Origin: a virus
IMG/VR virus record: IMGVR_UViG_3300027632_000001
Span: 1-37,376 of that record
Length of the DNA stretch: 37,376 bases
Direction: 5' to 3' (one strand)
Position numbers and translations under genes: made by a program. Under the pieces are notes generated by a model. The model had not been told where the DNA came from, did no database searches, and was given only the letters and a program-made list of their open reading frames with translations. This document shows positions 4,272-37,376 of this stretch, one piece after another (positions within the stretch are counted from its first letter, which is position 1; every line of letters starts with the position of its first letter).

Positions 4272-4296
4272 GGGGGCCTTCGGGCCCCCCTTTTTT
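4272..4296 (+). terminator. Intrinsic terminator after the capsid gene (T-phi-like position)
   Basis: GGGGGCC-TTCG-GGCCCCC stem-loop plus C-TTTTTT. Confidence 0.85.
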
Positions 4297-23597: not shown

Positions 23598-23599
23598 GC

Positions 23600-23628: not shown

Positions 23629-23676
23629 AACCCCACACTGAACGAACACAGACAGAGACACACACAGAGACACACC

Positions 23677-23832
23677 ATGAACACTACATTCACTACACAT
23701 GCAGAAGACTCCGCCATCCTCCGCACCATGACCGAAGCCCTGAGGGAGATGGAAGAGCAACGCAAGGCCAACGAGATGTTCGGTAACTGGGCCTCCGCGA
23801 TGAACCGCAACAGCAACAACGAAGAGGGATAA
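23677..23832 (+). CDS. Early hypothetical protein (51 aa)
   Basis: ATG after the CA/GA-rich leader of P6. Below the ORF-track cut-off. Confidence 0.5.
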   Translation: MNTTFTTHAEDSAILRTMTEALREMEEQRKANEMFGNWASAMNRNSNNEEG

Positions 23833-23837
23833 GACAG

Positions 23838-24008
23838 ATGCGATACACACAGAAGCAGATCATTGAGCAGGGTGAGTACGTACACAACGTGTCCCTCTCC
23901 CTCAGTAAGCCAGGCCTAAGCGAAGACGAGAAGACTAGACTGAGTCAGGTGTACATCGGGATGTACCGACGCCTCCTCATCAACATGAAACGAGTGAGAC
24001 AGACATGA
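23838..24008 (+). CDS. Early hypothetical protein (56 aa)
   Basis: ATG 23838. Stop overlaps the next start (ATGA at 24005). Confidence 0.5.
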   Translation: MRYTQKQIIEQGEYVHNVSLSLSKPGLSEDEKTRLSQVYIGMYRRLLINMKRVRQT

Positions 24009-24220
24009 TCAAGAACATCATCATCGCAGTGCAGGCAGTCGTCATCGCAGTCGCCCTCGGCATAGGTATCTACGGATACACAGAGTACCAGTTCGCATAC
24101 GAGTACGGTGAGTACATCCACGGTGAGTACTCCCAGATAGTGGACGAACTGGAAGCAGCCGAGTCCAAGTACGAAGAACTCAAAGACCGCATCGAAAGCG
24201 CCATCCCCTTCACCTTCTGA
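24005..24220 (+). CDS. Early protein with N-terminal TM segment (71 aa)
   Basis: MIKNIIIAVQAVVIAVALGIGIYGY... Confidence 0.6.
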   Translation: MIKNIIIAVQAVVIAVALGIGIYGYTEYQFAYEYGEYIHGEYSQIVDELEAAESKYEELKDRIESAIPFTF

Positions 24221-24230
24221 GGAAGACACA

Positions 24231-24413
24231 ATGAAACAACGTATCAAGTACTACTGGTTTATGGCCCGACTGTTCGCACCCTTGCTGGTCCGGCCCTCCT
24301 TCTGGAAGAAACTCGGAGCCTTCCTGGCAGTAGAAGCTACCCACCTAGTGGTAAGCAACGCCAAGCACATCGCCGGCATCAGCTTCTTCCTCGTAGTCCT
24401 AGCCCTGATCTAA
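24231..24413 (+). CDS. Early membrane protein (60 aa)
   Basis: Hydrophobic C-terminus ISFFLVVLALI. Followed by a terminator. Confidence 0.55.
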   Translation: MKQRIKYYWFMARLFAPLLVRPSFWKKLGAFLAVEATHLVVSNAKHIAGISFFLVVLALI

Positions 24414-24420
24414 ACCAACA

Positions 24421-24453
24421 AGCCCTGCTCGAAAGAGTGGGGCTTTTTCTTTT
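24421..24453 (+). terminator. Intrinsic terminator (10-bp stem, GAAA tetraloop, T5CT3)
   Basis: AGCCCTGCTC-GAAA-GAGTGGGGCT then TTTTTCTTT. Confidence 0.8.
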
Positions 24454-24463
24454 GTGAAAGGGG

Positions 24464-24492
24464 TTGACATCCCACCATCCTGCCTCCATACT
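24464..24492 (+). promoter_or_regulatory. Sigma70-like promoter P7 (TTGACA-N17-CATACT)
   Basis: Directly after the terminator. Weaker -10. Confidence 0.5.
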
Positions 24493-24529
24493 ATACCCAT
24501 CGCACGACAACACCAGATGGAGACACACC

Positions 24530-24838
24530 ATGTACCTACGCATCAACAAGACGAACCTTACTGAAGACCAACGCACTGAACTGGATCGACGTAAGGAACT
24601 GGTCAACCAACGTGAGGAACGTACCATCCGTAGACGGGTGTGGGTTGACGACCTAGAGGTTACTGCCCTGTTGGGTGGTGAGGTGAGCGAGGAACTAGAG
24701 GCAGCTAAGGCCGACCTAAACCGACATGAAGAACGCCTGACGCAGGCTCGAGTCCACCTCCAAGAGTACCTCCTGTCCATCGCATCCATCGGTAGTCGCC
24801 TCGGGTGGCTCGTGAGGTGGGCCCTGGGTAGCCGCTAA
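24530..24838 (+). CDS. Early hypothetical protein (102 aa), charged coiled region
   Basis: In-frame ATG 24530 after GGAG (24519-22). Confidence 0.6.
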   Translation: MYLRINKTNLTEDQRTELDRRKELVNQREERTIRRRVWVDDLEVTALLGGEVSEELEAAKADLNRHEERLTQARVHLQEYLLSIASIGSRLGWLVRWALGSR

Positions 24839-24854
24839 GTCACTGATAGTAGGT

Positions 24855-24870
24855 GGGAGAGGGACCTCCC
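24855..24870 (+). promoter_or_regulatory. GGA-loop hairpin GGGAG-AGGGAC-CTCCC
   Basis: 5-bp stem, hexaloop AGGGAC. Confidence 0.6.
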
Positions 24871-24894
24871 TAAGTGTATGTCTAGAAAGGGAAT

Positions 24895-24916
24895 AGTTGG
24901 AGGCCCTCCTATAGAT
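24895..24916 (+). promoter_or_regulatory. Phage RNAP promoter candidate phiA (AGTTGGAGGCCCTCCTATAGAT)
   Basis: One of four near-identical 22-mers. ...CTATAGA core resembles T7/SP6-group promoters. Confidence 0.7.
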
Positions 24917-25050
24917 ACAAGATAGGATAAGGCTTAGGTACCTGAAGTACTAAAGACTATCTTAGGTTCTCTCCTCAGTCACACATACCTACAGAATATA
25001 TACCTTTAGATATAGGATCTGTAGGTGTGGGTAATGTAGGCAGAACCATA

Positions 25051-25082
25051 GACACCTAAGGACACCTAAAGATACACCTAAG
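25051..25082. repeat. Three tandem 10-11-bp repeats GACACCTAAG
   Basis: GACACCTAAG GACACCTAAA GATACACCTAAG. Confidence 0.85.
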
Positions 25083-25120
25083 ACTAGGACGTAGACTCCT
25101 ACTTAGGATGTAGATCCCAA

Positions 25121-25161
25121 CCTAAGGCCACCGCTCGGCGTTCCGCCTCGCTCGCTCCGCC
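25121..25161 (-). repeat. GC-rich 40-bp element, copy D (inverted)
   Basis: CCTAAGG...CGCTCGGCGTTCCGCCTCGCTC is the reverse complement of copies A and C. 16 bp upstream of the -35 of P15. Confidence 0.85.
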
Positions 25162-25176
25162 CCACCAAGAAAACCC

Positions 25177-25205
25177 TTGACACCTGAAGACACCTAAGCT
25201 ATCAT
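25177..25205 (+). promoter_or_regulatory. Sigma70-like promoter P15 for the RNAP gene (TTGACA-N17-TATCAT)
   Basis: Spacer consists of two more GACACCT(G/A)AG repeats (25179-25198). Confidence 0.65.
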
Positions 25206-25237
25206 CTCCCGGTCAGACAGAAGAACATAAGGAACAC

Positions 25238-27595
25238 ATGAAGATGAACACACTTATCGAACGGCAGATGGAACTTGAAGATCAAGCCATGGCCCTGACC
25301 CAAGGGAAGATTGGCGATCAAGAGTACATCGACGGGCCCATCGGGCAGGTGGTTACCGGCAGGCTGATCCCTGAGGTGGCCTTGAGTATCGAAGCTACGA
25401 TAGCTGAGGGCTGGTCTAAGAAGAAACCCCGAGAGGACACACCACACTTTGTCCTTAAGGAAGCCAAGCCTGCTGACCTCGCCTTGCTTGCTATCCGCAC
25501 GCTACTGGCTGCGAGCCGGATGGATACCACAGCCCTCACCACTGTGAGTGGGCAGCTTGGAGGGTACGTAGAGGAGCACCTCGGGTGGTCTGAGCTACAC
25601 CGAGGGGAGAACAAGGAGTACGTGAAGTTCATGGAGAAGGTACTCAAGCGCTCCACCTCTGAGAGACATGGTCGTGGTGTGATGAGGCACGTGATCCACG
25701 ACAAGTTTGAGGTCGAGCCTTGGTCCATGGGGATGAAGCTGAAGGTTGGGATGCTGCTGGCCTACGCTGTTGCTGATGCTAGCTCCTGGTTTGAGATCGT
25801 TACCCTGCCTCACAACAGGGAGAAGTGGATGCACCACATCAAACCTACGGCTGAGCTACTGGCTGTGATGGACGAGCAAGCGGACGTGCTAGCCCACCTC
25901 CGACCTAACCGCCCCGTCATGATCTCGAAGCCGCTGCCTTGGGAGGATGACATCCAAGGTGGGTACTATAAACTACGCACCCCTCTCGTAAGGAAGGGGC
26001 ACGTGATTGGAGGTGACAAGACTAAACTGTATGAGTCCCTTAACCGCATCCAGGAAACACCCTGGACTATCAACACCTATGTACTGGATGTGTTGACTAC
26101 GCTGAGGGATGATGGCTCCAAGGTAGGAGGCATACCACAGGCAGACGCTATGCCTATGCCGGCCAAGACCTGGAACGATGACGCCACGCCTGACCCTGAG
26201 GAGCTTAAGGCCTGGAAGCAGAGAGCTAAGGAGGTACACGAGACCAACGGACGAGCCCGCTCCAAGCGGTTAGCATTCCTGATGGCACTCAACGAAGCGG
26301 AGAAGCTGACGAAGGAAGAGGAGTTCTTCTTCCCACACAACGTAGACTTCCGAGGCAGGGCCTACCCTCTGCCAGCTACGATCAGCCCGCAAGGAGACGA
26401 CATCAGTAAGGCGCTGCTTCAGTTCAAGGAAGGCAAGCGAGTAGGTGAACGTGGTCAGTACTGGCTGGCTGTGCACACGGCGAATAGTTTTGGCTACGAC
26501 AAGGATAGCTTGGACGGACGGGTAGCCTGGTGCAACGAGAACCTGGATGAGATATACGCAGCGGTTGAGGATCCGCTGAACAACACAGAGTTCTGGTCGA
26601 AGGCGGACAAGCCCTTCACCTTCCTGGCTGCGGCACGTGAGTTCATCGGTGCCCTGATCGGAGGCCCGGACTACATCAGCCACCAGCCTATCGGTATGGA
26701 TGGTAGCTGCAACGGCATCCAGCATTTCAGTGCGCTGCTGAAGGATCCTAAGGGTGGAGCTGAGGTCAACCTAATCCCAGCTGAGAAGCCCGGAGACATC
26801 TACTCTCTGGTCCTTCGGGAGACCGAGGCACTACTACAGGATAAGGTAGAGACAGGTACTGCTGAGGAATCTACGGCCGCTAAGGCCTGGTTGGACAGCG
26901 GGCAGGTGAACCGGAAGCTAGTCAAGCGGCCGACCATGACCACACCTTATAGTGTGAGTGCTTATGGAATCCGTGACCAGCTGATGGAAGAGCTGAACAG
27001 CAGGGACGTTGACCCTAAGACCCTGGACTGCGGGTTGCTGGGGAAGGTGGTAGCTGAGGGCATCGGGATTGCGGTGCGCGCTGCACGTGACGGCCAAGGC
27101 TGGCTCATCCAGATGGCTGAGGTACACACGCAGCACGAGAAGGATCTAGTGTGGACTACACCGCTGGGCTTGGAGATCACCCAGTCGAACCGGAAGATTA
27201 AGGCAGAGCGTGCGCAGGTGACGATCGCCGGGCAACGGAGGAGGCAGCTCTTCAACAAGGCAGGTGATAAGCTGGATGTGCGGGGCCAGAAGAACGGGAT
27301 CTCGCCTAACATGATTCACTCGCTTGATGCGGCGCACATGCACTTGACCTTGGCTGCACTGCCTGAGGACATAAGCTTCGCTGCTGTCCACGACAGCTTC
27401 GGGACACACGCTGGTGATGTCGATGTACTGAACGCTGCGTTACGTGAGGAGTTCGTAGCGATGTACTCAGAGGACGTACTGGCCAGGCTGCACGCTGAGT
27501 TCGAAGAGAGACTTGGTTGCGCAGTGGAGGCACCACCTGAGGCGGGAAGCCTAGACATAGAAGGAGTACGCGAGTCCTTGTACTTCTTCGCCTGA
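25238..27595 (+). CDS. T7-like single-subunit DNA-directed RNA polymerase
   Basis: 785 aa. PIGMDGSCNGIQHFSALL, KRPTMTTPYS, AVHDSFGTH and C-terminal ...YFFA parallel T7 RNAP motifs. Confidence 0.95.
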   Translation: MKMNTLIERQMELEDQAMALTQGKIGDQEYIDGPIGQVVTGRLIPEVALSIEATIAEGWSKKKPREDTPHFVLKEAKPADLALLAIRTLLAASRMDTTALTTVSGQLGGYVEEHLGWSELHRGENKEYVKFMEKVLKRSTSERHGRGVMRHVIHDKFEVEPWSMGMKLKVGMLLAYAVADASSWFEIVTLPHNREKWMHHIKPTAELLAVMDEQADVLAHLRPNRPVMISKPLPWEDDIQGGYYKLRTPLVRKGHVIGGDKTKLYESLNRIQETPWTINTYVLDVLTTLRDDGSKVGGIPQADAMPMPAKTWNDDATPDPEELKAWKQRAKEVHETNGRARSKRLAFLMALNEAEKLTKEEEFFFPHNVDFRGRAYPLPATISPQGDDISKALLQFKEGKRVGERGQYWLAVHTANSFGYDKDSLDGRVAWCNENLDEIYAAVEDPLNNTEFWSKADKPFTFLAAAREFIGALIGGPDYISHQPIGMDGSCNGIQHFSALLKDPKGGAEVNLIPAEKPGDIYSLVLRETEALLQDKVETGTAEESTAAKAWLDSGQVNRKLVKRPTMTTPYSVSAYGIRDQLMEELNSRDVDPKTLDCGLLGKVVAEGIGIAVRAARDGQGWLIQMAEVHTQHEKDLVWTTPLGLEITQSNRKIKAERAQVTIAGQRRRQLFNKAGDKLDVRGQKNGISPNMIHSLDAAHMHLTLAALPEDISFAAVHDSFGTHAGDVDVLNAALREEFVAMYSEDVLARLHAEFEERLGCAVEAPPEAGSLDIEGVRESLYFFA

Positions 27596-27603
27596 GAGAG
27601 CAC

Positions 27604-27619
27604 GGCCCAGGGACGGGCC
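27604..27619 (+). promoter_or_regulatory. GGA-loop hairpin GGCCC-AGGGAC-GGGCC
   Basis: 5-bp stem, hexaloop AGGGAC. 8 nt after the RNAP stop. Confidence 0.6.
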
Positions 27620-27620
27620 A

Positions 27621-27642
27621 AGTTGGAGGCCCTCTTATAGAC
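27621..27642 (+). promoter_or_regulatory. Phage RNAP promoter candidate phiB (AGTTGGAGGCCCTCTTATAGAC)
   Basis: 21/22 match to phiD. Confidence 0.7.
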
Positions 27643-27667
27643 CCCGGAAACCTACGAAAATAAATGC

Positions 27668-27695
27668 TTGACTTCTCCCTGGCTCTGCGTATAAT
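27668..27695 (+). promoter_or_regulatory. Sigma70-like promoter P8 (TTGACT-N16-TATAAT)
   Basis: Perfect -10. No ORF before the next promoter. Confidence 0.65.
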
Positions 27696-27761
27696 GCATC
27701 ACACAGTCAGGGAGCAGGAGGCACCCACCAAACAGACCAAGAAAAAAGATTAAAAAAAGTG

Positions 27762-27790
27762 TTGACAAGGAAAGCGGACTGAGATAGAAT
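27762..27790 (+). promoter_or_regulatory. Sigma70-like promoter P9 (TTGACA-N17-TAGAAT)
   Basis: A-rich upstream tract. CTGAACGAAC box 27800-27809. Confidence 0.7.
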
Positions 27791-27839
27791 GTACACACAC
27801 TGAACGAACGCAGACACACAACAGAGAGAGACAGAGATC

Positions 27840-27980
27840 ATGACCACCACCACCACCGAGATTTTTGAAGGCCTTGAGTTTGCTGCTGATTTCCTGAAGG
27901 CCCTCGACGAAGCTGATGCTGATCAGATCCTACTTGGCGAAGAGATCGCCGCCTCCTTAGCCACCGAGCTGAGCCTGTAA
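27840..27980 (+). CDS. Small acidic protein (46 aa)
   Basis: ATG after the CA/GA-rich leader of P9. 11 D/E and 1 K. Confidence 0.5.
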   Translation: MTTTTTEIFEGLEFAADFLKALDEADADQILLGEEIAASLATELSL

Positions 27981-27995
27981 CAACGAGACATACAC

Positions 27996-28070
27996 ATGAC
28001 AACGATCTACGCCTTCCCACAAGACATCGAAGATGCAGTGGAAGACAACCAGAACAGCGACGAGACATAG
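27996..28070 (+). CDS. Possible acidic micro-protein (24 aa)
   Basis: GAGACATACAC-ATG context like other early genes. Very short. Confidence 0.25.
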   Translation: MTTIYAFPQDIEDAVEDNQNSDET

Positions 28071-28081
28071 GAGATAGAGAC

Positions 28082-28270
28082 ATGTACTACGATATCGAAA
28101 CCCCCGAGATGAACCTGATGGAACTTGAGTTCGACGCTGACTTCCGCGCCGACTACGAAGACGAAGGGCCTGAGGCCAGCTTCGAAGAGGAATACTACAT
28201 GGACACGGACGTTGGATGGTTTGACTTCACGGATGAAGAGATCGCGATGATGTACACCGACGTAGCCTAA
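28082..28270 (+). CDS. Highly acidic protein (62 aa), DNA-mimic candidate
   Basis: 22 of 62 residues are D/E, with a single basic residue. Confidence 0.65.
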   Translation: MYYDIETPEMNLMELEFDADFRADYEDEGPEASFEEEYYMDTDVGWFDFTDEEIAMMYTDVA

Positions 28271-28286
28271 CACTGAGAACAGAGAG

Positions 28287-28730
28287 ATGAAGAACAACGA
28301 AACCGAAGTTGAAGCCTTCACCGAGGCAGAGTACGCGGAGTTCATGAGCGAGATGCGAGAGTTAGCCGACGAGCTAGGGTATTCCCCGGAGCTCGACCTA
28401 AGTGAAGGGCAGCTCGATGTTCTGTTGGAAGACGAGCCCACACTAGAGAAGCTTGAGGAAGCCGGATGGGAAGACTTCTTTAAGTTCTTGGATGAAGTGG
28501 CTGAGTCCGTAGGCTACTACGCCTCAGCTCCTTACACCGAAGAGCAAATCGACATCCTGCTGTCGGACAAACCCACCTTGGAACAGCTCGAGGATGCTGA
28601 CTACAAGGCTTACCTGAGGGTACTTGACTTCCTCCACTTTGATCGTCGAGGTTTCGTCATCGAAGACCTGACGGAAGAAGAGTACGACGCCCTGTACATA
28701 GGTGATGTCGCCGGACGCTTTACCAAATAA
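28287..28730 (+). CDS. Acidic protein with internal duplication (147 aa)
   Basis: 42 of 147 residues are D/E. Duplicated GY..(E)Q(L/I)D(V/I)LL.D.PTLE.LE module. Confidence 0.7.
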   Translation: MKNNETEVEAFTEAEYAEFMSEMRELADELGYSPELDLSEGQLDVLLEDEPTLEKLEEAGWEDFFKFLDEVAESVGYYASAPYTEEQIDILLSDKPTLEQLEDADYKAYLRVLDFLHFDRRGFVIEDLTEEEYDALYIGDVAGRFTK

Positions 28731-28786
28731 CTGACGGGGCTGCGGCCCCTTACCCAGACAACGCACAACATCAATCGGAGATTAAC

Positions 28787-29410
28787 ATGCCTAAGAACAA
28801 GACCTATGCTACCCCTAAGTCCACCGCCGTCTTCCCTTGGATCACCAAGCCTGACACTCGGTTCGACGCAGCCGGCACCTACAAGACTGGGCTGGCTTTC
28901 GAAGAGGACGCACCCTTCCTGGCTGAGCTGGAAGAGATCGTAGAAGCAGAGAAGGTTAAGCTCCGGAAGTCCGGCAAGCTGACGAAGGCGAAGGAGGGTC
29001 GGTTCCACATGCCGATCAAACCTGAGACCACCAAGAATGCTGAGGGAGAATACGAAGAGACAGGCCGCCTAGTCGTGACCTTCAAGTCGAAGGCTCAGTG
29101 GCCAGATGGTAGCCCGAAGGAGATGAAAGTCTTCGACGCTAAGGGCAAGGCGATGAAGGGAGTTAACGTCTTTGGTGGTGCTGAGATCAAGGTAGCCTTT
29201 AGTGCTAGCGGATACAGCCATGGTGCTAACGTAGGTGTCGCCCTCTACATGAATGCGGTACAGGTTATCAACCTGGCTAGCAAGCAGGACACCGGAGAGT
29301 CCTTCGGGTTCGGAGTAGAGGAAGGTGGGTACGAGTTCAAGGAAGCAGATGCCGAGGACGAATCTGCTGAGGACATCATCACCACTGAAGCTGACGACGA
29401 GGAGTTCTAA
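28787..29410 (+). CDS. ssDNA-binding protein, T7 gp2.5-like
   Basis: 207 aa. N-terminal ...AVFPWITKPD... and acidic C-terminal tail ending ...EADDEEF (gp2.5-type tail with terminal Phe). Confidence 0.8.
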   Translation: MPKNKTYATPKSTAVFPWITKPDTRFDAAGTYKTGLAFEEDAPFLAELEEIVEAEKVKLRKSGKLTKAKEGRFHMPIKPETTKNAEGEYEETGRLVVTFKSKAQWPDGSPKEMKVFDAKGKAMKGVNVFGGAEIKVAFSASGYSHGANVGVALYMNAVQVINLASKQDTGESFGFGVEEGGYEFKEADAEDESAEDIITTEADDEEF

Positions 29411-29417
29411 CTCAACC

Positions 29418-29445
29418 GGCCCCAAGGATGGGGCCTTTCTTATTT
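29418..29445 (+). terminator. Intrinsic terminator that is also a GGA-loop hairpin (GGCCCC-AAGGAT-GGGGCC + T-rich tail)
   Basis: 6-7-bp GC stem, then TTTCTTATTT. Confidence 0.75.
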
Positions 29446-29455
29446 GGAGAGCACT

Positions 29456-29845
29456 ATGATAGAGTTCACACTGAACACTAAGCCAGTCCCCTGCCCCCGC
29501 CCTCGCGTCACACGCTATGGCCGGAGCTACTACCCCAAGACCTACACAGCCTGGAAAGCTGAGGCCACCAAAGACCTACCAAAGAACCCAGAGTTCTTCT
29601 CCGACCCAGTCCGGGTCACCATCTCAAACGTCATCCCCCAGTTCAAGACCAAGGCAGCCGCCGCTAAGAACAAGCAACCCAAGGGAGACGTTGACAACTA
29701 CGCCAAGTCTGTACTAGACTTGATCACCTCAGCGAAGTCCCCGATCTGGGACGACGACGACCAGGTAGTAGAGCTGCTGGTGACCAAGCGATTCGCAGCT
29801 GACGGCGAGGAACCACACACCGAAGTCACCATCGAAAATATTTAG
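29456..29845 (+). CDS. rusA: RusA-family Holliday junction resolvase
   Basis: ...KPVPCPRPRVTRYG.SYYP..Y..WK... and KGDVDNYAKSVLDLIT...IWDDDDQVV typical of RusA. ATG 29456 after GGAGAG. Confidence 0.8.
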   Translation: MIEFTLNTKPVPCPRPRVTRYGRSYYPKTYTAWKAEATKDLPKNPEFFSDPVRVTISNVIPQFKTKAAAAKNKQPKGDVDNYAKSVLDLITSAKSPIWDDDDQVVELLVTKRFAADGEEPHTEVTIENI

Positions 29846-29853
29846 GAAAACCC

Positions 29854-29882
29854 TTGACACGGACGTCACCTTCCATTATCAT
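29854..29882 (+). promoter_or_regulatory. Sigma70-like promoter P10 (TTGACA-N17-TATCAT)
   Basis: CTGAACAAAC box 29892-29901. Weak hairpin TGAC-ACGGAC-GTCA at 29855-29868. Confidence 0.65.
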
Positions 29883-29916
29883 AATCCCGAGCTGAACAAA
29901 CACCGAGGAAAACAAA

Positions 29917-30027
29917 ATGTCCAAGATCAAGACTACCGTTGAGTTCACCATCCTTCTTCTCGCCAGCGGCACCTTCGCCTACAGCGTGGCCGTCCTGGCC
30001 GAGGCCCTCTACCGCACCTTCGGGTAG
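29917..30027 (+). CDS. Membrane micro-protein (36 aa)
   Basis: ATG after GAGGAA. ...FTILLLASGTFAYSVAVLAEAL... Confidence 0.4.
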   Translation: MSKIKTTVEFTILLLASGTFAYSVAVLAEALYRTFG

Positions 30028-30039
30028 GAGACACACACA

Positions 30040-30672
30040 ATGAACAAGCCAAAGCTCTGGCAAGAGAAAGACCTGAAGGGAATCTGGGACGTGACCCGCA
30101 AGCTGGACGGAGTCCGGATGCTGCGGGACGAGGACGGCAACCCCGTCAGCCGCAACGGCAAACCTCTGTACAATCTAGAAGGTATACCCGCTGACATCAC
30201 CGACGCGGAGATCTTCATCGACAACTGGGAGACCACGGTGTCCCGAGTCCGGAGCCACAACGGCGAGCCGGTACCAGCTGAGGCAGCCTACACTATCGAG
30301 CCGCTCGACCCCAGGCTATACCTCAAGCGCTTAGCTAACCCGACGGTCACCACCATCAAGGAAGAATTGACCCTGGCCCTGGCCCGAGGAGAGGAAGGGC
30401 TGGTGCTGAGGCAGGGAGACAAGTGGTTGAAGGTCAAGCCGAAGGAGACCTACGACGTTGAGGTGACAGGTGCAACGGAAGGCAAGGGTAAGTTCGCTGG
30501 TCAGATCGGCGCGCTCATCACACCGATGGGCAATGTCTCCGGGTTCAACGACTACCTTCGCCGTGAGTTCACGAAGGAACTCCCGAAGCTGATTGAGGTA
30601 GAGGCCATGGGCCTGACGCCTCGAGGTAAGTTCCGCCATCCCCGCTTCGTGCGAGTGAGGTTCGACAAATGA
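30040..30672 (+). CDS. ATP-dependent DNA ligase, unusually small (210 aa)
   Basis: Motif I RKLDGVR (Lys21), EGLVLR (IV), WLKVKP (V), RHPRFVRVRFDK (VI). Confidence 0.8.
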   Translation: MNKPKLWQEKDLKGIWDVTRKLDGVRMLRDEDGNPVSRNGKPLYNLEGIPADITDAEIFIDNWETTVSRVRSHNGEPVPAEAAYTIEPLDPRLYLKRLANPTVTTIKEELTLALARGEEGLVLRQGDKWLKVKPKETYDVEVTGATEGKGKFAGQIGALITPMGNVSGFNDYLRREFTKELPKLIEVEAMGLTPRGKFRHPRFVRVRFDK

Positions 30673-32345
30673 GTATACATGGAGATGTCACCCGCCGGGC
30701 CGAGTGCCCGAGCTGCGGCAGCACAGACAACGTCGCGGTCTATGAGGATAACTACGAGAAGTGCTTCGGCTACGGCTGCGAGTACTTCAAGATGCCGGAC
30801 GGAGAGAGACCAATGGAACAGAAGAGTAAGCCAGGAAGTAAGGCACACGAGCGTAGTCAGGTAGAGGATCCCATCATCGAGGACCTGCCGGCACGCGGAC
30901 TGACTGAAGAGACAGCGAAGAAGTGGAGCTACGAGAAAGCAACTGTGCACGGGAAGAAGGCGCAGGTAGCGAACTACTACAAGGACGGGAAGTGGGTATG
31001 CGCGAAGGTCCGCTTCAAGGGTAAGGAGTTCCGGATGATCGGCGATGGCGGCGACGCCCCACTGTACGGACAGCACCTCTGGCGCGACGGAGGCAAGCAC
31101 CTCGTGATCGTCGAGGGAGAGATCGATGCGATGTCGGTGTCCCAGATACAGGGACATAAGTGGCCGGTCGTGAGCCTACCCTCTGGTGCTGGCGGAGCAG
31201 TCCGCTCCGTACAAAAGAACTTAGAGTTCGTCGAAGGATACGACAGGGTTGTGTTGATGTTCGACGGGGACGAGCCGGGCCAGCAGGCAGCTCGTGACGT
31301 AGCTGAGCTACTCACACCGGGCAAGGCGCACATAGCCCAGCTCCCCTTGAAAGACGCGAATGAGATGTTGAAGGCAGGCCGCAGCGCTGAACTTATCTCA
31401 GCGTTCTGGGATGCGAAAGTGCACAGGCCTGATGGCATAGTGTCGGGTGCAGACTTATGGGATGACATCGTAGCAGAGCAGCCCGGTGCGGGGATCGAGT
31501 ACCCTTGGTCTGGTCTCAACGAGAAGCTGCTGGGCATCAGGCCTGGTGAGTTGGTCACGGTGACAGCTGGTTCGGGCATCGGTAAGTCCACGTTCGTACG
31601 GCAGTTGGCTCACCACCTTGGTACCAACAACGGACAGACCATAGGATACATCGGGCTAGAAGAGTCAACGCGGAAGACAGCGCTTGAGTTGATGAGCGTT
31701 CACGCCAAGAAGAGATGGAGCGTAGACTTCAGGCAGCACGCCGACCTCACCAGTGAGGAGCAGGCTGAGCGGAAGCAGGTGTTCGACGAGGTACTGGGTA
31801 CCGGAAGGTTCCACCTTTACGATCACTTCGGCTCAACCAACTCTGATAGTCTGCTGGCTAAGATACGCTACCTCATCAAGGGATGCGGCGCTCGGTTCGT
31901 AGTCCTAGACCACCTCAGTATCGTGGTCTCAGCGATGGACGACGACAGCAAGCTGGACGAGAGGAAGCTCCTGGACAAGACGATGACAAAGCTTCGGACC
32001 TTGGTGGAGGAGACAGGCGCAGGACTCATCCTGGTGTCGCATCTCCGTCGGCCAGGCGGAGAAGGCAAGGGTTGGGAGCGCGGCCGAGAGGTAGCACTGT
32101 CTAGCCTACGTGGGTCCGCCGCCATCGAGCAGCTCTCAGATGTGGTGCTCGGGTTGGAGCGGGATCAGCAGCAGGAAGGAAGCCCGGTCGCTCTTCGAGT
32201 GTTGAAGAACAGACCTATAGGTAGGACAGGCATCGCCACCTACCTGAAGTATGATGAGGAGACGGGGCTATACGAGGAGACGGAGCCCCCTGGTGATAGC
32301 GACGCGGCGGTCTTCATGGAGGAGAAAGATAGCGGCGACTTCTAA
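30669..32345 (+). CDS. Bifunctional DNA primase/helicase, T7 gp4-like
   Basis: Zn-ribbon CPSCGS...CFGYGC, TOPRIM LVIVEGEIDAMS, Walker A GSGIGKST and DnaB-like C-terminal region. Confidence 0.93.
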   Translation: MSIHGDVTRRAECPSCGSTDNVAVYEDNYEKCFGYGCEYFKMPDGERPMEQKSKPGSKAHERSQVEDPIIEDLPARGLTEETAKKWSYEKATVHGKKAQVANYYKDGKWVCAKVRFKGKEFRMIGDGGDAPLYGQHLWRDGGKHLVIVEGEIDAMSVSQIQGHKWPVVSLPSGAGGAVRSVQKNLEFVEGYDRVVLMFDGDEPGQQAARDVAELLTPGKAHIAQLPLKDANEMLKAGRSAELISAFWDAKVHRPDGIVSGADLWDDIVAEQPGAGIEYPWSGLNEKLLGIRPGELVTVTAGSGIGKSTFVRQLAHHLGTNNGQTIGYIGLEESTRKTALELMSVHAKKRWSVDFRQHADLTSEEQAERKQVFDEVLGTGRFHLYDHFGSTNSDSLLAKIRYLIKGCGARFVVLDHLSIVVSAMDDDSKLDERKLLDKTMTKLRTLVEETGAGLILVSHLRRPGGEGKGWERGREVALSSLRGSAAIEQLSDVVLGLERDQQQEGSPVALRVLKNRPIGRTGIATYLKYDEETGLYEETEPPGDSDAAVFMEEKDSGDF

Positions 32346-32350
32346 AGCAA

Positions 32351-32387
32351 AAAGCCTTGGCCTTCGGGTCAGGGCTTTCTTGCGTTT
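32351..32387 (+). terminator. Intrinsic terminator (12-bp stem with UUCG loop, A-tract/T-tract flanks)
   Basis: AAAGCCTTGGCC-TTCG-GGTCAGGGCTTT then CTTGCGTTT. Confidence 0.7.
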
Positions 32388-32392
32388 AGGGC

Positions 32393-32421
32393 TTGACAAC
32401 GGCGGGGTGACCTAGTAGTAT
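32393..32421 (+). promoter_or_regulatory. Sigma70-like promoter P11 (TTGACA-N17-TAGTAT)
   Basis: Between the terminator and the DNA polymerase gene. Confidence 0.65.
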
Positions 32422-32449
32422 CTGCCCTACCCAAAGAGGAGAGAGACAA

Positions 32450-34342
32450 ATGAGACACACAATCAAAGATAAGGTGGTTCGGGTTTACGATCTCGAGACA
32501 TCGAGTGGCCAGTTTGATAAGCCCAACGCCGTGGACTTGATCGAGAAGATTCACTGTATAGTAGTAGATGACTTCCTGGCGGTGACGCCGGAGGAGCAGA
32601 AGGAAGCGGTGCGTCTGCTGAACGAAGCTGACGTGGTGGTTGCCCACAACGGGGCAGCCTTCGACTACCCAGTACTCAAGCGGTTCTTCCCTGAGTTCGC
32701 TCCGAAGGAGCAGCTTGACACGAGGATCATAAGCGAGGTGGTGTACGGAGGAGAGCTGCGCTTTAAAGATATCCATGCTTCGCGTAAGTACAACGGCGAC
32801 TGGATTGATCCCAAGCTGTACGGCCGCCACAGCCTGCAAGCGTGGGGCCAGCGTCTGGGAGTGAGCAAGCTTGACTACTCCGACAAGGCGAAGGCTGGTG
32901 AGTATGGGGAGGAGCTGAAGGAGGATCCGTTTGCTAGGTACATCCCTGAGATGGGGACCTACTGTATCGTTGACGTGGAAGTGACACGCGCTCTGCTGAA
33001 TCGCTTTGATAAGCTAGGCGCATTGGATACTCGTGCAGCTTGGGACGAGAGCCAACTGGCTATCCACTTGGCAGCCATGATGCGACGCGGGGTGGGCTTC
33101 GACGAGAAGGCAGCGCAGCGGTTACATGCTACGTTGGCGGGTCGGCTCGAGGAGCTACGCACTGAGATCGCCCCCTACTTCAAGTCATGGTACGAGCCTG
33201 ATGGTGCAACCGCAGCGAAGGCGCTGTTCACACCGAAGAAGGACAACGTCAAGCGTGGGTACACCGGAGGCGCAGAGCTGACGAAGGTACGGCGTGTGAC
33301 ACTGAACCCGGCATCTGATGCACAGCTTGCTGGTCAGTTGCAGAGGCAGTATGGCTGGAAGCCTGAGGTGTTCACCGAGAGAGGCCAACCTGTGGTCAGT
33401 GCTGAAGTATTACGCACGCTACCTTATGAGCCCATCAAGCTGCTAACTGAGTTCGCTGTCGTAGCCAAGCGGCTGTCGCAGCTGAGTGAAGGGAGGCACG
33501 GATGGTTGAAGGTTGCCAACGAAGGTAACATCTACGGGAAGATCAACTCTAATGGTACGCGGACAGGACGAGCCACGCACTATGGGCCTAATCTAGCGCA
33601 AGTCCCTGCGGTCGGAGCGCCTTATGGTAAGGCTTGCCGTCAGCTGTTTAAGCCACGACCTGGCTACGTACTGGTCGGCGCGGATAGCAGCGGCGTGGAG
33701 CTACGGATGTTGGCACACTACGCAGCCCGCATCGACGGCGGTGCACTGGGTCGCACTATATTACAGGGCGACGTGCATACCGAGAACCAGAAGGCTGCTG
33801 GACTCAAGACGCGAGGCGCAGCTAAGACCGTAGCTTACGCTATGCTCTACGGCGCAGGCGACGCCAAGTTAGGGGAGACCTATCTGGCTGATTTGGGTAA
33901 GCAAGGCAACGCTACTAAGGCAGGCAAGCTGGTACGGCGTGGGCTTGACAGCGTACTGAAGTCTGGTATACTGTCGAAGCAGTTAGTGGAAGCCCTGACC
34001 AAGCGTGGGTACATCAAAGCTATTGATGGGCGGAAGCTGCTGGGTGTGTCGAAGCGCGTTGCGCTGAACTCGCTGCTACAATCGGCCGGATCAGTCGCCA
34101 CGAAGGTAGCGATAAATATCATGCATCGGAAGTTTGAAGCTGCCGGGCTGGTTGAGGATCGAGACGTAGGCCTACTGCTATTCGTCCATGACGAGGTACA
34201 AGTGGAAGCTAAGCCTGAGCATGCTGAACTCGTGGCCAAGATAGCGGTCGAGTCCATCCGCGAGGCGGGCAAGGAGCTGGGCCTGAGGGTTCCCCTCGAT
34301 GGGGAAGCAAAGGTTGGTTCCTCTTGGGCTTCCACCCACTAA
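32450..34342 (+). CDS. Family A DNA polymerase with 3'-5' exonuclease, T7 gp5-like
   Basis: VYDLETS (ExoI), HNGAAFDYPVL, RTGRATHYGPNLAQVP, LLFVHDEVQVE. Confidence 0.93.
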   Translation: MRHTIKDKVVRVYDLETSSGQFDKPNAVDLIEKIHCIVVDDFLAVTPEEQKEAVRLLNEADVVVAHNGAAFDYPVLKRFFPEFAPKEQLDTRIISEVVYGGELRFKDIHASRKYNGDWIDPKLYGRHSLQAWGQRLGVSKLDYSDKAKAGEYGEELKEDPFARYIPEMGTYCIVDVEVTRALLNRFDKLGALDTRAAWDESQLAIHLAAMMRRGVGFDEKAAQRLHATLAGRLEELRTEIAPYFKSWYEPDGATAAKALFTPKKDNVKRGYTGGAELTKVRRVTLNPASDAQLAGQLQRQYGWKPEVFTERGQPVVSAEVLRTLPYEPIKLLTEFAVVAKRLSQLSEGRHGWLKVANEGNIYGKINSNGTRTGRATHYGPNLAQVPAVGAPYGKACRQLFKPRPGYVLVGADSSGVELRMLAHYAARIDGGALGRTILQGDVHTENQKAAGLKTRGAAKTVAYAMLYGAGDAKLGETYLADLGKQGNATKAGKLVRRGLDSVLKSGILSKQLVEALTKRGYIKAIDGRKLLGVSKRVALNSLLQSAGSVATKVAINIMHRKFEAAGLVEDRDVGLLLFVHDEVQVEAKPEHAELVAKIAVESIREAGKELGLRVPLDGEAKVGSSWASTH

Positions 34343-34348
34343 CTGATA

Positions 34349-34364
34349 GGGAGCTTCGGCTCCC
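34349..34364 (+). other. c(UUCG)g GC hairpin at gene junction
   Basis: GGGAGC-TTCG-GCTCCC. Confidence 0.6.
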
Positions 34365-34383
34365 TTACCTTTCGGAGATTGAA

Positions 34384-34932
34384 ATGAGTGATGAAACCAC
34401 GAAGACCTGCACCAAGTGCGGGAGTGAGAAACCAACGGAGGATTTCCCGAAGAACAGGGCAGGGGTAGCAGGGCGCTACAGCCTGTGCCGGGAGTGTAAG
34501 AACAGTGGAGCCCGCGCCCGGACAGTCAGTGGAGACACGAGGAGAACCAGAGAAATCCGCTGGGCTACCGACCCGCACCGAGAGCTAGCCGAGAGGATGC
34601 GTAGAGCCGCCGTCGCGAACTCCAAACGCCGCGGCCACGGGCCTCCCGAGTTCACAGCGAAGCAGCTTGCGGGCTACCTCCGGACCCACCCAGTCTGCCC
34701 AGCCACAGGCAAGAGGTTCGACCTCAGCTTCGAAGGCAACAGGTGGTTCCGCCCTAGCCTAGATAGGATCGACGGCGACAAGGGATATGTCAAAGGCAAC
34801 CTAGTTGTGGTGTGCTTTGACGTGAACAACCTACGGAGCCACCGCTCACCGAAGGAAGTTGCTAGCCTAGTAGCCGGTTCGAACATAGCCACCTACTACG
34901 CTAACATCGCCACAGCAGAACGCTTCATTTAA
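34384..34932 (+). CDS. HNH-family (His-Me finger) endonuclease-like protein, possible homing endonuclease
   Basis: N-terminal CTKCG...CRECKN zinc ribbon. PSLDRIDGDKGYVKGNLVVVCFDVNNLRS motif. ATG 34384 after GGAG. Confidence 0.6.
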   Translation: MSDETTKTCTKCGSEKPTEDFPKNRAGVAGRYSLCRECKNSGARARTVSGDTRRTREIRWATDPHRELAERMRRAAVANSKRRGHGPPEFTAKQLAGYLRTHPVCPATGKRFDLSFEGNRWFRPSLDRIDGDKGYVKGNLVVVCFDVNNLRSHRSPKEVASLVAGSNIATYYANIATAERFI

Positions 34933-34935
34933 CCC

Positions 34936-34964
34936 TTGACAACCCACACGGAAGTGGGTATCAT
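34936..34964 (+). promoter_or_regulatory. Sigma70-like promoter P12 (TTGACA-N17-TATCAT)
   Basis: Intergenic, 4 nt after the HNH stop. Confidence 0.65.
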
Positions 34965-35003
34965 TACTCCCGCATTGAGAACAACCCAACCAGGAGACTC
35001 ACC

Positions 35004-35192
35004 ATGTACGAAGAGATTAACGTTGACGGAGCCCAGGAGATCGTTGACCGCTGGAACAAAGCGAACCCCGGAAAGGCCGTCGCGAAAGTCCTCTACTACC
35101 CCATGAAGGCAGCCGCCATGTACGGCACAAGCCTTGACACCGCCGACATAGAGTACTATACTGACGGCCTCTTCGAACCCATCGCCAACTAA
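35004..35192 (+). CDS. Hypothetical protein (62 aa)
   Basis: ATG after CAGGAGAC. ORF-track ORF. Confidence 0.6.
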   Translation: MYEEINVDGAQEIVDRWNKANPGKAVAKVLYYPMKAAAMYGTSLDTADIEYYTDGLFEPIAN

Positions 35193-35203
35193 GAACACAC
35201 TCA

Positions 35204-35219
35204 GCCACAGGGACGTGGC
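35204..35219 (+). promoter_or_regulatory. GGA-loop hairpin GCCAC-AGGGAC-GTGGC
   Basis: 5-bp stem, hexaloop AGGGAC. Intergenic. Confidence 0.6.
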
Positions 35220-35233
35220 ATCAGGAGACACAC

Positions 35234-36013
35234 ATGCCTAAGAAAATAAGAACCGCACTTATCGATGCTGATGCGTACTGCTACGCGGCAGCCTTCAGCG
35301 CCGAGTCGAAGTACAACTTCGGTGGTGAAGACATTGTGGAGGTAGACGAGGACGCAGCTATCGCTAAGGCTGAGAGCCTAATCGCTGACTCCGTCGCTGA
35401 GGTGGAGGCAGATGAGCTTATCCTCTGCCTGAGTAGCCCACGATCTGATGTTGACCTTTGGCGCTTTGAGGTGCTGCCTTCTTATAAGAGTAACCGCAAA
35501 GCTAAGCCTAAGCCGGAGGCCTACCCCGCAGTCCGACGCCACCTAGAGGCCACTTATGACTGCTACATGGAACCTCGACTAGAAGCTGACGACATCATGA
35601 CTCTGCTCAGCTCCGACCCGACCATGATTCCCGGTATCAAAGTCGTGGTCTCGCAGGACAAAGACCTGCTGCAAACCATAGGCAGGTACTATAACCCGCG
35701 GACTCGCGAGAAGAGGATCATCAAGGCCGACGAGTCGAATCGCTGGCACATGATGCAGACCTTACAAGGCGACACCGTTGACGGATACAAAGGTATCCCC
35801 GGAATAGGCCCGAAGAAAGCTGAGAAGATCCTAGAGGATGTAGCCTGGGGCGACCGATGGGCAGCTGTGGTCGAAGCCTACGAATCCAAAGGCCTCACCG
35901 AGGAAGACGCGCTGGCTCAAGCCCGCGTAGCCTACATGATGCAGACTCCCAGCTACGACTGGACAACCAAAGAGGTAACCCTCTGGACACCTGACCTACA
36001 CCCGCCGAAATAA
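35234..36013 (+). CDS. 5'-3' exonuclease (FEN family), T7 gp6-like
   Basis: LIDADAYCY, SYKSNRK, EADDIM, SQDKDL, GDTVDGYKGIPGIGPKKAEKIL. Confidence 0.88.
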   Translation: MPKKIRTALIDADAYCYAAAFSAESKYNFGGEDIVEVDEDAAIAKAESLIADSVAEVEADELILCLSSPRSDVDLWRFEVLPSYKSNRKAKPKPEAYPAVRRHLEATYDCYMEPRLEADDIMTLLSSDPTMIPGIKVVVSQDKDLLQTIGRYYNPRTREKRIIKADESNRWHMMQTLQGDTVDGYKGIPGIGPKKAEKILEDVAWGDRWAAVVEAYESKGLTEEDALAQARVAYMMQTPSYDWTTKEVTLWTPDLHPPK

Positions 36014-36025
36014 ACCTCAAATAAA

Positions 36026-36047
36026 AGCTTGACAAGGACGTCGAGCT
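36026..36047 (+). promoter_or_regulatory. GGA-loop hairpin AAGCTTGAC-AAGGAC-GTCGAGCTT overlapping the P13 -35
   Basis: 8-bp stem (one G-U), hexaloop AAGGAC. Confidence 0.6.
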
Positions 36048-36057
36048 CAGATAAGAT
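36029..36057 (+). promoter_or_regulatory. Sigma70-like promoter P13 (TTGACA-N17-TAAGAT)
   Basis: AAATAAAAGC upstream. TTGAGCGAAC box 36067-36076. Confidence 0.65.
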
Positions 36058-36103
36058 AGACCCACATTGAGCGAACAACACAACAGAGAGAGAGACACAG
36101 ACC

Positions 36104-36343
36104 ATGAACAACCTTGAAGCCCAGATCGCCGCCATCACCGCCGAGAACTTCTCCCAGGAAGAACTCATCCAAGCCCTCGCTGCTAGCATGCAGGTCCGCA
36201 GCGAACTTGAGGATGGCCTCGAGATTGCCAACGGCCACATCGAAGCGCTGGCCACCACCGCAAACAACCTGAACGAGACCATCACTAACCTGCGGGCCAG
36301 CAATGACATCCTTCAGGGGATCGTAGCCGAGGTGCTCGCGTGA
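36104..36343 (+). CDS. Hypothetical coiled-coil protein (79 aa)
   Basis: ATG after a CA/GA-rich leader. ORF-track ORF. Confidence 0.6.
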   Translation: MNNLEAQIAAITAENFSQEELIQALAASMQVRSELEDGLEIANGHIEALATTANNLNETITNLRASNDILQGIVAEVLA

Positions 36344-36492
36344 ATCTAGAAGCCTACACACCAGTAGCTAAGGACGACGCCTACGTCGCTAAGCTAGAAG
36401 CAGAGAACCGGGAGCTTCGGGACCAGCTCGAACTCCTAGAGGAATCCAACCGCACCTACCAGGTTCAGTACTGGAAGTTGCTCAACAAATAA
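36340..36492 (+). CDS. Hypothetical coiled-coil protein (50 aa), GTG start coupled by GTGA overlap
   Basis: GTG 36340 overlaps the upstream TGA. ...AKLEAENRELRDQLELLEESN... Below the ORF-track cut-off. Confidence 0.4.
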   Translation: MNLEAYTPVAKDDAYVAKLEAENRELRDQLELLEESNRTYQVQYWKLLNK

Positions 36493-36505
36493 AATCAAAA
36501 ACTGC

Positions 36506-36534
36506 TTGACAAGGACGTCTCGCAGCAATACTAT
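36506..36534 (+). promoter_or_regulatory. Sigma70-like promoter P14 (TTGACA-N17-TACTAT)
   Basis: TTGACAAGGACGTC as in P3 and P13. A-rich upstream. Confidence 0.65.
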
Positions 36535-36575
36535 AGTCTCGAACTTAGACGAACCCCGCACACAGAGACACCCCG

Positions 36576-36785
36576 ATGAAACTTAAGACCATCATCACCA
36601 CCACCTACGAGCTAGCCTTCAACGGCCTGACCTCCTGGGTACTGAGCTACTACGTCATCTCCGGGATACTCGGCGCCGACCCTAGTGCTTACAAGAGTCT
36701 CGTAGTTTCAGTTTGTGTCACCCTATTCGCCTACTTCCGTCGTAAGATCTGGACGGCCACCATACTTAAGGAGTTGAAATCGTGA
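36576..36785 (+). CDS. Small membrane protein (69 aa)
   Basis: Two hydrophobic segments. ORF-track ORF. Confidence 0.6.
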   Translation: MKLKTIITTTYELAFNGLTSWVLSYYVISGILGADPSAYKSLVVSVCVTLFAYFRRKIWTATILKELKS

Positions 36786-37105
36786 ACGCCACCCGCCACA
36801 ACCAAGGCAAACCCCAACTCAGCATGGTCCTCGAAGCCCGCAAGGGCCTAGAGGCAGCGGCTCGGGCCCTCGAGTTTGGCCAACGCAAGTACGACAGGGC
36901 CAACTGGAAGAAGGGTCTCAAGACCACGCAGATACTGGACTCCCTGCTGAGGCACACCACTAAGCTGCTCGACCCGCAGAGCCCTGACGAGGACGACGAG
37001 TCCGGCCTGAACCACGTAGACCACATCGTGGCGAACGCGCTGTTCCTCGCTGAGTACGTTGGTACGGAGTTCGACGACCGGGCAAAGTTGGAGGCCCCCC
37101 TATAG
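36782..37105 (+). CDS. dATP/dGTP-pyrophosphohydrolase-like (MazG-related, DUF5664-type) protein
   Basis: GTG start after AAGGAG with GTGA overlap. KYDRANWKKGL...SLLRH...DDESGLNHVDHIVANALFL pattern, as I recall for this family. Confidence 0.5.
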   Translation: MNATRHNQGKPQLSMVLEARKGLEAAARALEFGQRKYDRANWKKGLKTTQILDSLLRHTTKLLDPQSPDEDDESGLNHVDHIVANALFLAEYVGTEFDDRAKLEAPL

Positions 37106-37107
37106 AC
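37086..37107 (+). promoter_or_regulatory. Phage RNAP promoter candidate phiC (AGTTGGAGGCCCCCCTATAGAC)
   Basis: 21/22 match to phiD. Its TATAG contains the TAG stop of the 36782 gene. Confidence 0.7.
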
Positions 37108-37123
37108 ACAGGAAGCCTCACCA

Positions 37124-37145
37124 AGTTGGAGGCCCTCCTATAGAC
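37124..37145 (+). promoter_or_regulatory. Phage RNAP promoter candidate phiD (AGTTGGAGGCCCTCCTATAGAC)
   Basis: In tandem, 38 bp after phiC. Last promoter before the structural genes. Confidence 0.7.
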
Positions 37146-37297
37146 AGGGGAAGCCCTGTACCTTTTTCTGAGAAGCAGGAGCCCAGCCCTTCCGCCAGTT
37201 GCGCGAGCAACGGTAACATCACTAGCGGCAACCCTCCTGCTTCTCCCCACTTTCTCATGTGTCTCTCCACTGTTGGGGCCTTCGGGCCCCTTTTTTT
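37143..37297 (+). ncRNA. Structured leader/candidate small RNA (about 155 nt) from phiD to the intrinsic terminator
   Basis: No plausible ORF. Hairpin ACAGGG-GAAG-CCCTGT plus T5 (37144-37167). 12-bp perfect long-range stem 37170-81 / 37234-45. GTTGC-GCGA-GCAAC (37198-37211). Terminator 37275-97. Confidence 0.45.
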
Positions 37298-37376
37298 CCC
37301 CAGGAGGGAATATGATACGGACAGCACAGCCCGAGCTCTACGCCGGGGACCACACTGAAGACCCTATACCTTTACA
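37250..37376. repeat. Terminal overlap, identical to 1-127
   Basis: Direct comparison of both ends. Confidence 0.95.
37275..37297 (+). terminator. Intrinsic terminator (same element as 26-48)
   Basis: GGGGCC-TTCG-GGCCCC plus T7. Confidence 0.8.

Follow-up and report, generated by a model that had tools for sequence, protein, structure and literature searches.

A structured leader RNA and a putative leaky terminator between tandem phage promoters and the late genes of an uncultured T7-like phage

The 37,376-nucleotide (nt) IMG/VR record IMGVR_UViG_3300027632_000001, analysed here over its whole length (the window), is a complete virus record of an uncultured T7-like phage without close relatives. 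At the boundary between its middle and late genes, two tandem promoters of the phage RNA polymerase (RNAP) lead into a leader RNA (37143-37297) that ends in a hairpin followed by seven U residues. The reading favoured here, with a probability of about 0.55, is that this hairpin is a constitutive leaky terminator behind tandem phage promoters, a valve for the phage enzyme and an insulator against host RNAP, preceded by a processed or stabilised structured leader. The parts are known ones, namely terminators like TE and T-phi of T7, a promoter-proximal hairpin as at phi6.5/R6.5 of T7 and a gate resembling the lambdoid PR'-tR' with a by-product like StxS (PMC7547250), and they are combined in an arrangement not found described for a phage with a single-subunit RNAP.

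In the proposed scheme the element would be the point of control at which middle genes give way to late ones. Transcripts started at the two tandem promoters would carry a non-coding, strongly folded stretch of 155 nt (193 nt from phiC, the upstream promoter) and would then reach the terminator just ahead of the ribosome-binding site of the first late gene. A fraction of the phage polymerases would stop there and release a stable small RNA consisting of a 5' hairpin, a long hairpin and the 3' terminator hairpin, and the remaining polymerases would read through, making the only mRNA for ~20 kb of virion, packaging and lysis genes. The same terminator would end host RNAP transcription coming from the early and middle host-type promoters, so that the late genes would depend on the phage enzyme. 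The long hairpin would most likely serve RNA processing or stability, as the RNase III sites behind T7 promoters do. Temporal control by a phage RNAP has its textbook example in the T7-like phages, whose promoters and terminators are standard tools; the T7 paradigm does not include a phage in which the only promoters for the late genes lead into a terminator. If the reading is right, valves close to a promoter, of the kind found in lambdoid phages that use host RNAP, have also evolved for single-subunit polymerases, and the set of RNAP, promoter and terminator, orthogonal to that of T7, could be used as a defined set of parts.

Promoters, leader RNA and terminator

A 22-mer promoter motif occurs in four copies in the whole genome (phiA to phiD, at 24896, 27622, 37087 and 37125), all on the + strand and with 0 expected by chance, and the hexamer TATAGA is confined to these four sites. 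Beyond them, no phage-RNAP promoter-like site was found on the + strand even at 3 mismatches to the 14-mer core, and the whole-genome motif scan returned no phage promoter downstream of 37125. The last two copies, phiC and phiD, form a duplicated 38-bp unit in which the first transcribed bases are included, the transcription starts G37105 and G37143 being placed according to the T7 promoter layout in the T7 record. An earlier note, made from the sequence alone, had described tandem late promoters feeding a highly structured RNA, and all the elements that it named lie where it had put them.

With a threshold of 10 matches out of 12, there are 17 strong promoters of the sigma70 type, mostly with a perfect -35 hexamer and a 17-bp spacer. 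All of them occupy the + strand from 21.4 to 36.5 kb, the final one being at 36506-36534. Promoter-like sites come to 21 in total against 6.2 expected, and the late 20 kb contains 4 weak sigma70-like matches, one of them on the + strand, against 7.0 expected. For transcripts from the sigma70-type promoters, the hairpin and U7 at 37275-37297 form the first strong terminator, which by analogy with T7 TE would mark the end of host-RNAP territory and act as an insulator. Since the 20-kb late block has no further phage promoter and no good sigma70 promoter to serve it, read-through of 37297 is obligatory, and the virion, packaging and lysis genes (~20 kb) all depend on transcripts that cross it. 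The dilemma posed by the earlier note, in which every late transcript must either stop here or read through, is thus real: with no other promoter for the next 20 kb, both outcomes must occur. A late promoter, a terminator within ~200 nt and a late operon without another promoter together make up the layout of the lambdoid PR'-tR' region.

To the end of the terminator the leader measures 155 nt from phiD and 193 nt from phiC. The RNA 37143-37297 has a minimum free energy (MFE) of -61.5 kcal/mol (z = -4.5), which none of 200 shuffled sequences equalled, and its high degree of structure is in this sense real. The phiD transcript is made up, in order, of a 5' hairpin, a 76-nt irregular hairpin, a 29-nt linker and a GC hairpin with U7 (coordinates in Table 1). 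The 5' hairpin, which is followed by ACC and then U5 at 37163-37167, is probably a stem that protects the 5' end, and as a terminator it would with its U5 be weak at most. In the 76-nt hairpin, a 12-bp base is followed by an internal loop (4x4), a bulged helix of 5 bp, a second loop (3x9) and an 8-bp tip that has a one-base bulge and a GCGA loop. The 12-bp helix (37170-81 with 37234-45; pair probability at least 0.98) is the genome's longest perfect inverted repeat within 120 nt, and the GCGA-capped hairpin at 37198-37211 forms with a probability of 0.98. These two elements and the immediate hairpin with its U5 had all been proposed from inspection and are all recovered by the model; a further suggested pairing of CCGC with GCGG is not, having a probability of ~0.002 and a cost of 5.4 kcal/mol, and the model favours instead 37186-88 paired with 37227-29.

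The claim that the stretch holds no credible open reading frame also stands. Overlapping open reading frames at 37059-37358 (+), 36960-37250 (-) and 37118-37327 (-) have no Pfam match and have implausible starts. An Rfam search of the leader gave 0 matches at gathering thresholds and, when run permissively, only chance matches (E ~2-9), and no tRNA or tmRNA-like RNA was found in it. The cumulative AT skew has its maximum at 37231, so that the compositional regime changes exactly at the element.

The terminator itself, a GC-rich hairpin directly joined to a U-tract of at least five U, has the sequence form of an intrinsic terminator and ends 4 nt upstream of the ribosome-binding site of the first late gene. 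Its pair probabilities are 0.85-1.0, mostly 1.0, in the phiC, phiD, terminated and read-through forms of the transcript, and the pair-probability model yields no alternative structure competing with the hairpin in any of these forms, which therefore argues for a constitutive valve and not for a classical attenuator or riboswitch. The description of the region as an attenuator-type leader holds for the choice between stopping and reading through and fails for classical attenuation, there being neither a competing structure nor a riboswitch or leader family.

The same hairpin core recurs in a twin terminator, which begins 10 nt past the stop codon of the capsid gene and leaves 15 nt between the end of its U run and the next ATG. 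No host-type promoter feeds the twin site, so its reader should be the phage RNAP, and since the leader hairpin matches the twin, the leader terminator should act on phage RNAP too; judged from these sequences, the phage enzyme probably responds to it. T7 RNAP is known to terminate stochastically at hairpins adjacent to at least five U, giving terminated and read-through isoforms (PMC8783025), and T-phi is ~95% efficient in vivo, the promoter-less genes behind it depending on read-through (PMC2952870). The T-phi position, after the capsid gene, is occupied by a terminator in T7 (PMC6938266) and in LUZ100 (PMC10134795), and termination of phage RNAP after the capsid gene is a conserved T7-like feature (PMC10134795; PMC6938266).

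The 76-nt hairpin at 37170-37245 is, by analogy with T7, a candidate RNase III-type processing or stability element. RNase III substrates typically offer two helical turns, sometimes by way of stacking, and internal loops restrict cleavage (PMC1540722). Here the paired stretches are of 12, 5 and 8 bp, split by the 4x4 and 3x9 loops, a modelled shape that would be compatible with such substrates without being diagnostic of them.

Several points weigh against the favoured reading. The phage is known from metagenomic contig sequence alone, and the efficiency with which its polymerase terminates at the hairpin could be near zero, which would make the terminator a pure host insulator, or high, which would call for antitermination. 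An insulator role by itself leaves it unexplained that the promoters lie upstream and not downstream of the terminator, and in a distant relative, L001, the order is the opposite one, a terminator-like hairpin standing before a promoter-like repeat. The RNase III role is suggested by shape and analogy, and the 12-bp base falls short of the two-turn substrates of E. coli unless helices stack (PMC1540722). Finally, no relatives are close enough to show conservation, the closest portal protein being 53% identical.

The linker and alternative readings

The linker between the long hairpin and the terminator belongs to the stretch (~37230-37274) that holds the most pyrimidine-rich 29-mers of the + strand, with up to 25 of 29 pyrimidines. 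Early and middle genes (21500-36800) have a common translation start, found in at least 15 genes, that consists of a Shine-Dalgarno sequence (SD) and a GA/CA-rich spacer of the GAGAGACA type; in late genes (290-20000) the spacers behind the SD are mixed. Read as its reverse complement, the linker is an ideal early/middle start, with SD, CA-rich spacer and AUG. Over positions -25 to +6, 9 of 24 early/middle genes, among them those for RNAP, ligase, DNA polymerase and exonuclease, are perfectly complementary to the linker for 8 nt or more, against 0 of 19 late genes. A score of 9 is reached by 0.04% of mononucleotide-shuffled and 0.9% of dinucleotide-shuffled linkers, and the linker is the unique maximum among all 29-mers of the + strand, the next best scoring 6. 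That second-best antisense match (12683-12704; 6 of 24 early/middle starts) lies inside a late gene of 1107 amino acids (aa) and is probably a compositional accident.

This match raises the possibility that the terminated leader is a trans-acting small RNA (sRNA), which the tandem late promoters would produce abundantly. Its tail would pair with early and middle mRNAs over their SD, spacer and AUG and so shut off their translation late, a function that would add to the valve and to which we give tentative credence, with the odds against it. The linker seed is mostly unpaired in the terminated RNA, and the sequence found here, in which a GC hairpin and U7 come after a free seed, is the usual 3' module of bacterial base-pairing sRNAs. 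In a duplex scan restricted to translation starts, the mean energy of the linker is -15.6 kcal/mol with early/middle starts and -10.8 kcal/mol with late starts, and an earlier, cruder gene set had given a Mann-Whitney p of 1e-4. There is a precedent in StxS, the terminator-ended by-product of a lambdoid late promoter that acts as a regulatory sRNA (PMC7547250). Against this, the energy test is marginal when the -15.6 kcal/mol is set against the -13.5 kcal/mol mean of dinucleotide shuffles (P = 0.04), and the early/middle-minus-late contrast gives P = 0.11. Part of the signal is composition, a pyrimidine tract facing purine-rich starts (purine fraction 0.60 for early/middle and 0.51 for late starts), and the P values are optimistic in that several features were examined before the linker match. 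Moreover, upward of 20 different mRNAs would need to be titrated by this one RNA.

The linker statistics thus support a trans-acting shut-off role of the terminated RNA without establishing it, and we consider that role rather unlikely. The same holds, at much the same long odds, for the view that the 155/193-nt RNA is a class-switch riboregulator made by phage RNAP, the tail silencing early and middle mRNAs as a group and the leak-through expressing the virion genes. Were it true, one element would turn the late genes on and the earlier classes off, and one RNA masking a shared ribosome-binding sequence would amount to a simple, portable shut-off of a whole gene class.

The linker may also act in cis. 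In the MFE structure of the read-through RNA it forms a 13-bp helix over the SD and AUG of the first late gene, whose ribosome-binding site is the ninth least accessible of 54. Beyond composition, this pairing between linker and SD is not significant, 14% of composition-preserving shuffles doing as well (P = 0.14), and masking of the site by the linker is, on the model, a possibility.

A terminator acting on host RNAP only, as a pure insulator of the T7 TE type, would make the 155 nt a structured 5' untranslated region and would yield no discrete small RNA. The terminator does stand exactly where the host-type promoters stop, and the T7 layout at TE is the same; the late genes moreover need read-through of two serial hairpins, which would be easiest if the phage enzyme passed freely. 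Such a restriction would nonetheless leave the twin hairpin behind the capsid gene without a reader, there being no host-type promoter in the late block, and it sits poorly with the consistent termination of T7 RNAP by hairpins next to at least five U (PMC8783025) and with the conserved action of post-capsid terminators on phage RNAP in T7-like phages (PMC10134795, PMC6938266). We regard it as unlikely.

Still less probable is an efficient terminator with regulated antitermination, whether by a phage factor, by the nascent structured RNA or by tiny abortive transcripts pairing with the hairpin's 5' half. The put RNA of phage HK022 acts on host RNAP as a nascent antiterminator; we know of no RNA-based antitermination of single-subunit RNAPs. 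The order of promoter, structured RNA, terminator and promoter-less operon is that of lambda PR'-tR' (PMC7547250), but the Q-type antiterminator domains PF06530 and PF03589 are absent from the six-frame genome, and such factors act on multisubunit RNAP. A search of the genome found no T7-lysozyme-type amidase encoded. At T-phi, abortive transcripts with complementarity to the 5' half bring about antitermination (PMC2952870), and a C4 run in the initial bases of phiB could pair with the G4 of the 5' arm in both terminators; the match is limited to 4 GC pairs and wobbles, with a chance of ~5% by our estimate, and abortive-transcript antitermination in the T7 T-phi style, for which this C4:G4 match from phiB was the only candidate, was judged too weakly founded.

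Least probable of all is that the stretch is no + strand RNA element at all, being either a DNA-level site such as a replication origin, for which the tandem promoters recall the T7 primary origin (tandem phi1.1A/B promoters and an AT-rich stretch) but which is contradicted by a G+C content of 57% over the 155 transcribed nt, by the lack of an AT-rich stretch and by a GC skew without a turning point there, or a minus-strand gene of 46 codons that would take its ribosome-binding site from the linker complement. The frame in question (37257-37118) opens with a textbook translation start for this phage, its perfect phage-type ribosome-binding site being the reverse complement of the linker, but recognised genes are all on the + strand, no phage promoter or good host promoter lies nearby on the minus strand, the frame has no family match and, at this G+C, open frames as long as this are common, so that it is probably not a gene.

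Known systems and distant relatives

In the T7 record TE is placed at 7588; phi1.1A, phi1.1B and phi1.3 all lie upstream of it, gene 1.4 begins 20 nt further on, and TE folds as a UUCG-looped hairpin followed by a ribosome-binding site. Like the leader terminator, TE therefore has a UUCG-loop hairpin and a U-rich tail, follows phage promoters and abuts the next ribosome-binding site, and each stands where host-RNAP transcription should end and the phage RNAP must pass. Unlike TE, the terminator described here has a perfect U7 and a duplicate of its hairpin behind the capsid gene, lies at the middle/late and not the early/middle boundary, and comes after a dedicated structured non-coding RNA of 130 nt.

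T-phi and the engineered 'transcriptional valves' for T7 RNAP resemble the element as proposed here in their stochastic termination at a hairpin and U-tract with essential promoter-less genes downstream (PMC2952870, PMC8783025). The twin terminator at 4272-4296 occupies the T-phi position, whereas the putative leader valve precedes all late genes and its terminated product would be a non-coding RNA and not an mRNA. With the phi6.5/R6.5 region of T7, where transcription starts upstream of R6.5, a site cut by RNase (PMC6938266), the phage shares the order exonuclease, small genes, first late promoter, processing hairpin (here a candidate), small genes and portal, and its paired promoters resemble phi1.1A/B of T7, which are associated with R1.1. 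The candidate hairpin is longer and more branched than the T7 R sites and has a perfect 12-bp base, and T7 lacks a terminator in the interval from phi6.5 to gene 6.5.

Lambdoid late control, with PR', the lambda 6S RNA or StxS, and tR', is alike in placing a terminator within ~200 nt of the late promoter and the whole late operon behind it, and the terminated by-product can be a regulatory sRNA, as StxS is (PMC7547250). It differs in relying on host RNAP with Q loaded at the promoter, where the present phage has promoters for a single-subunit RNAP and no Q-like domain. The E. coli greA leader GraL is alike in having two close promoters from which most transcripts end at a leader terminator as small RNAs and the rest become mRNA (PMC2836576); it is a bacterial system transcribed by host RNAP, with much shorter RNAs and with neither a long hairpin nor an anti-ribosome-binding-site tail.

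The phage stands far from sequenced relatives. A blastn search of the phage collection returned none, the best RNAP match in that collection is 35% identical, and the 53% portal match is the best among 5.8 billion proteins, viral and metagenome contigs reaching at most 45%. Exact-pattern scans for the promoter gave nothing or single chance matches. The two arms of the 12-bp helix were looked for in 185,579 genomes, with one match, in L032 (Candidatus Electronema), which is put down to chance: it lies in coding sequence, there is no other similarity, and ~0.06 matches were expected by our estimate.

Among distant relatives (portal 40-45% identical) the leader layout is not uniform. In L008 (portal 40%) a 10-bp hairpin and T5 stand directly before the first small late gene with a pyrimidine-rich tract upstream, and in L003 a hairpin and T6 stand directly before that gene. 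The arrangement in L001 (a provirus record, portal 45%) is a terminator-like hairpin and then the promoter-like repeat, and L018 has a promoter-like repeat without a terminator. The L001 repeat, of 27 bp, resembles T7 promoters and occurs before the first late gene and ~4.1 kb downstream (coordinates noted in that record are 1897-1937, 2758-2784 and 6896-6922); L001 also has a tandem 18-mer with copies 23 bp apart and a gene-free stretch of 600 bp ahead of its late genes. The stereotyped early/middle start sequence is absent from the whole related records G001-G004. In L008, where the features noted lie at 1137-2030, an exonuclease-like gene, the only middle gene on that contig, has the same GAGAGACA-type start.

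Genome context and other structured regions

Bases 1-127 of the record are identical to 37250-37376, so that the unique circle is 37,249 bp. IMG/VR labels this repeat 'direct terminal repeats'; as 127 is a common maximum assembler k-mer, it is probably an overlap artefact of circular assembly and not a pair of physical ends. Owing to the overlap, a copy of the leader terminator appears at 26-48, and the first late gene, which begins at 37312, corresponds to 63-287.

Table 1. Coordinates of the leader element, the twin terminator and recognised genes in the window.
Feature	Coordinates	Strand	Remarks
Promoter phiC	37087..37108	+	22-mer copy; predicted start G37105; contains stop codon of upstream gene
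Promoter phiD	37125..37146	+	22-mer copy; 38 bp downstream of phiC; predicted start G37143
5'-terminal hairpin	37144-37159	+	+2 to +17 of phiD transcript; 6 bp, GAAG loop; pair probabilities 0.89-0.95
Irregular hairpin	37170..37245	+	76 nt; -34.5 kcal/mol alone, z = -5.5
Pyrimidine-rich linker	37246..37274	+	23/29 pyrimidines; mostly unpaired except short central GUG
Intrinsic terminator	37275-37297	+	6-bp all-GC stem (hairpin to 37290), UUCG loop, U7 without spacer
Twin terminator	4272..4296	+	7-bp stem, UUCG loop, C then U6; same hairpin core as leader terminator
Single-subunit RNAP gene	25238-27595	+	
5'-3' exonuclease gene	35234-36013	+	
Small dATP/dGTP-diphosphohydrolase-like gene	36782-37105	+	
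First late gene	SD 37302-37308, ATG 37312, continues as 63-287	+	74 aa, no family
Second small late gene	291-476	+	61 aa
Portal gene	480-2033	+	
Scaffold gene	2217-3134	+	
Major capsid protein gene	3336-4262	+	
Tail tube gene	4954-5547	+	

Long hairpins are also found behind phiA (24981-25032) and phiB (~27665-27720), the latter overlapping a sigma70 promoter close to consensus (27668-27695), and between two genes of the late operon (17177-17231); all three could be sites of the RNase III type. Strong folding (-78 kcal/mol, z = -3.2) is likewise seen in the 201 nt that precede the major capsid gene (3135-3335), where 3141-3168 form a 12-bp hairpin and 3163-3178 pair at long range with 3244-3259. 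This stretch may be a leader that serves processing or the control of translation for the virion protein made in the largest amount, whose gene itself has no promoter.

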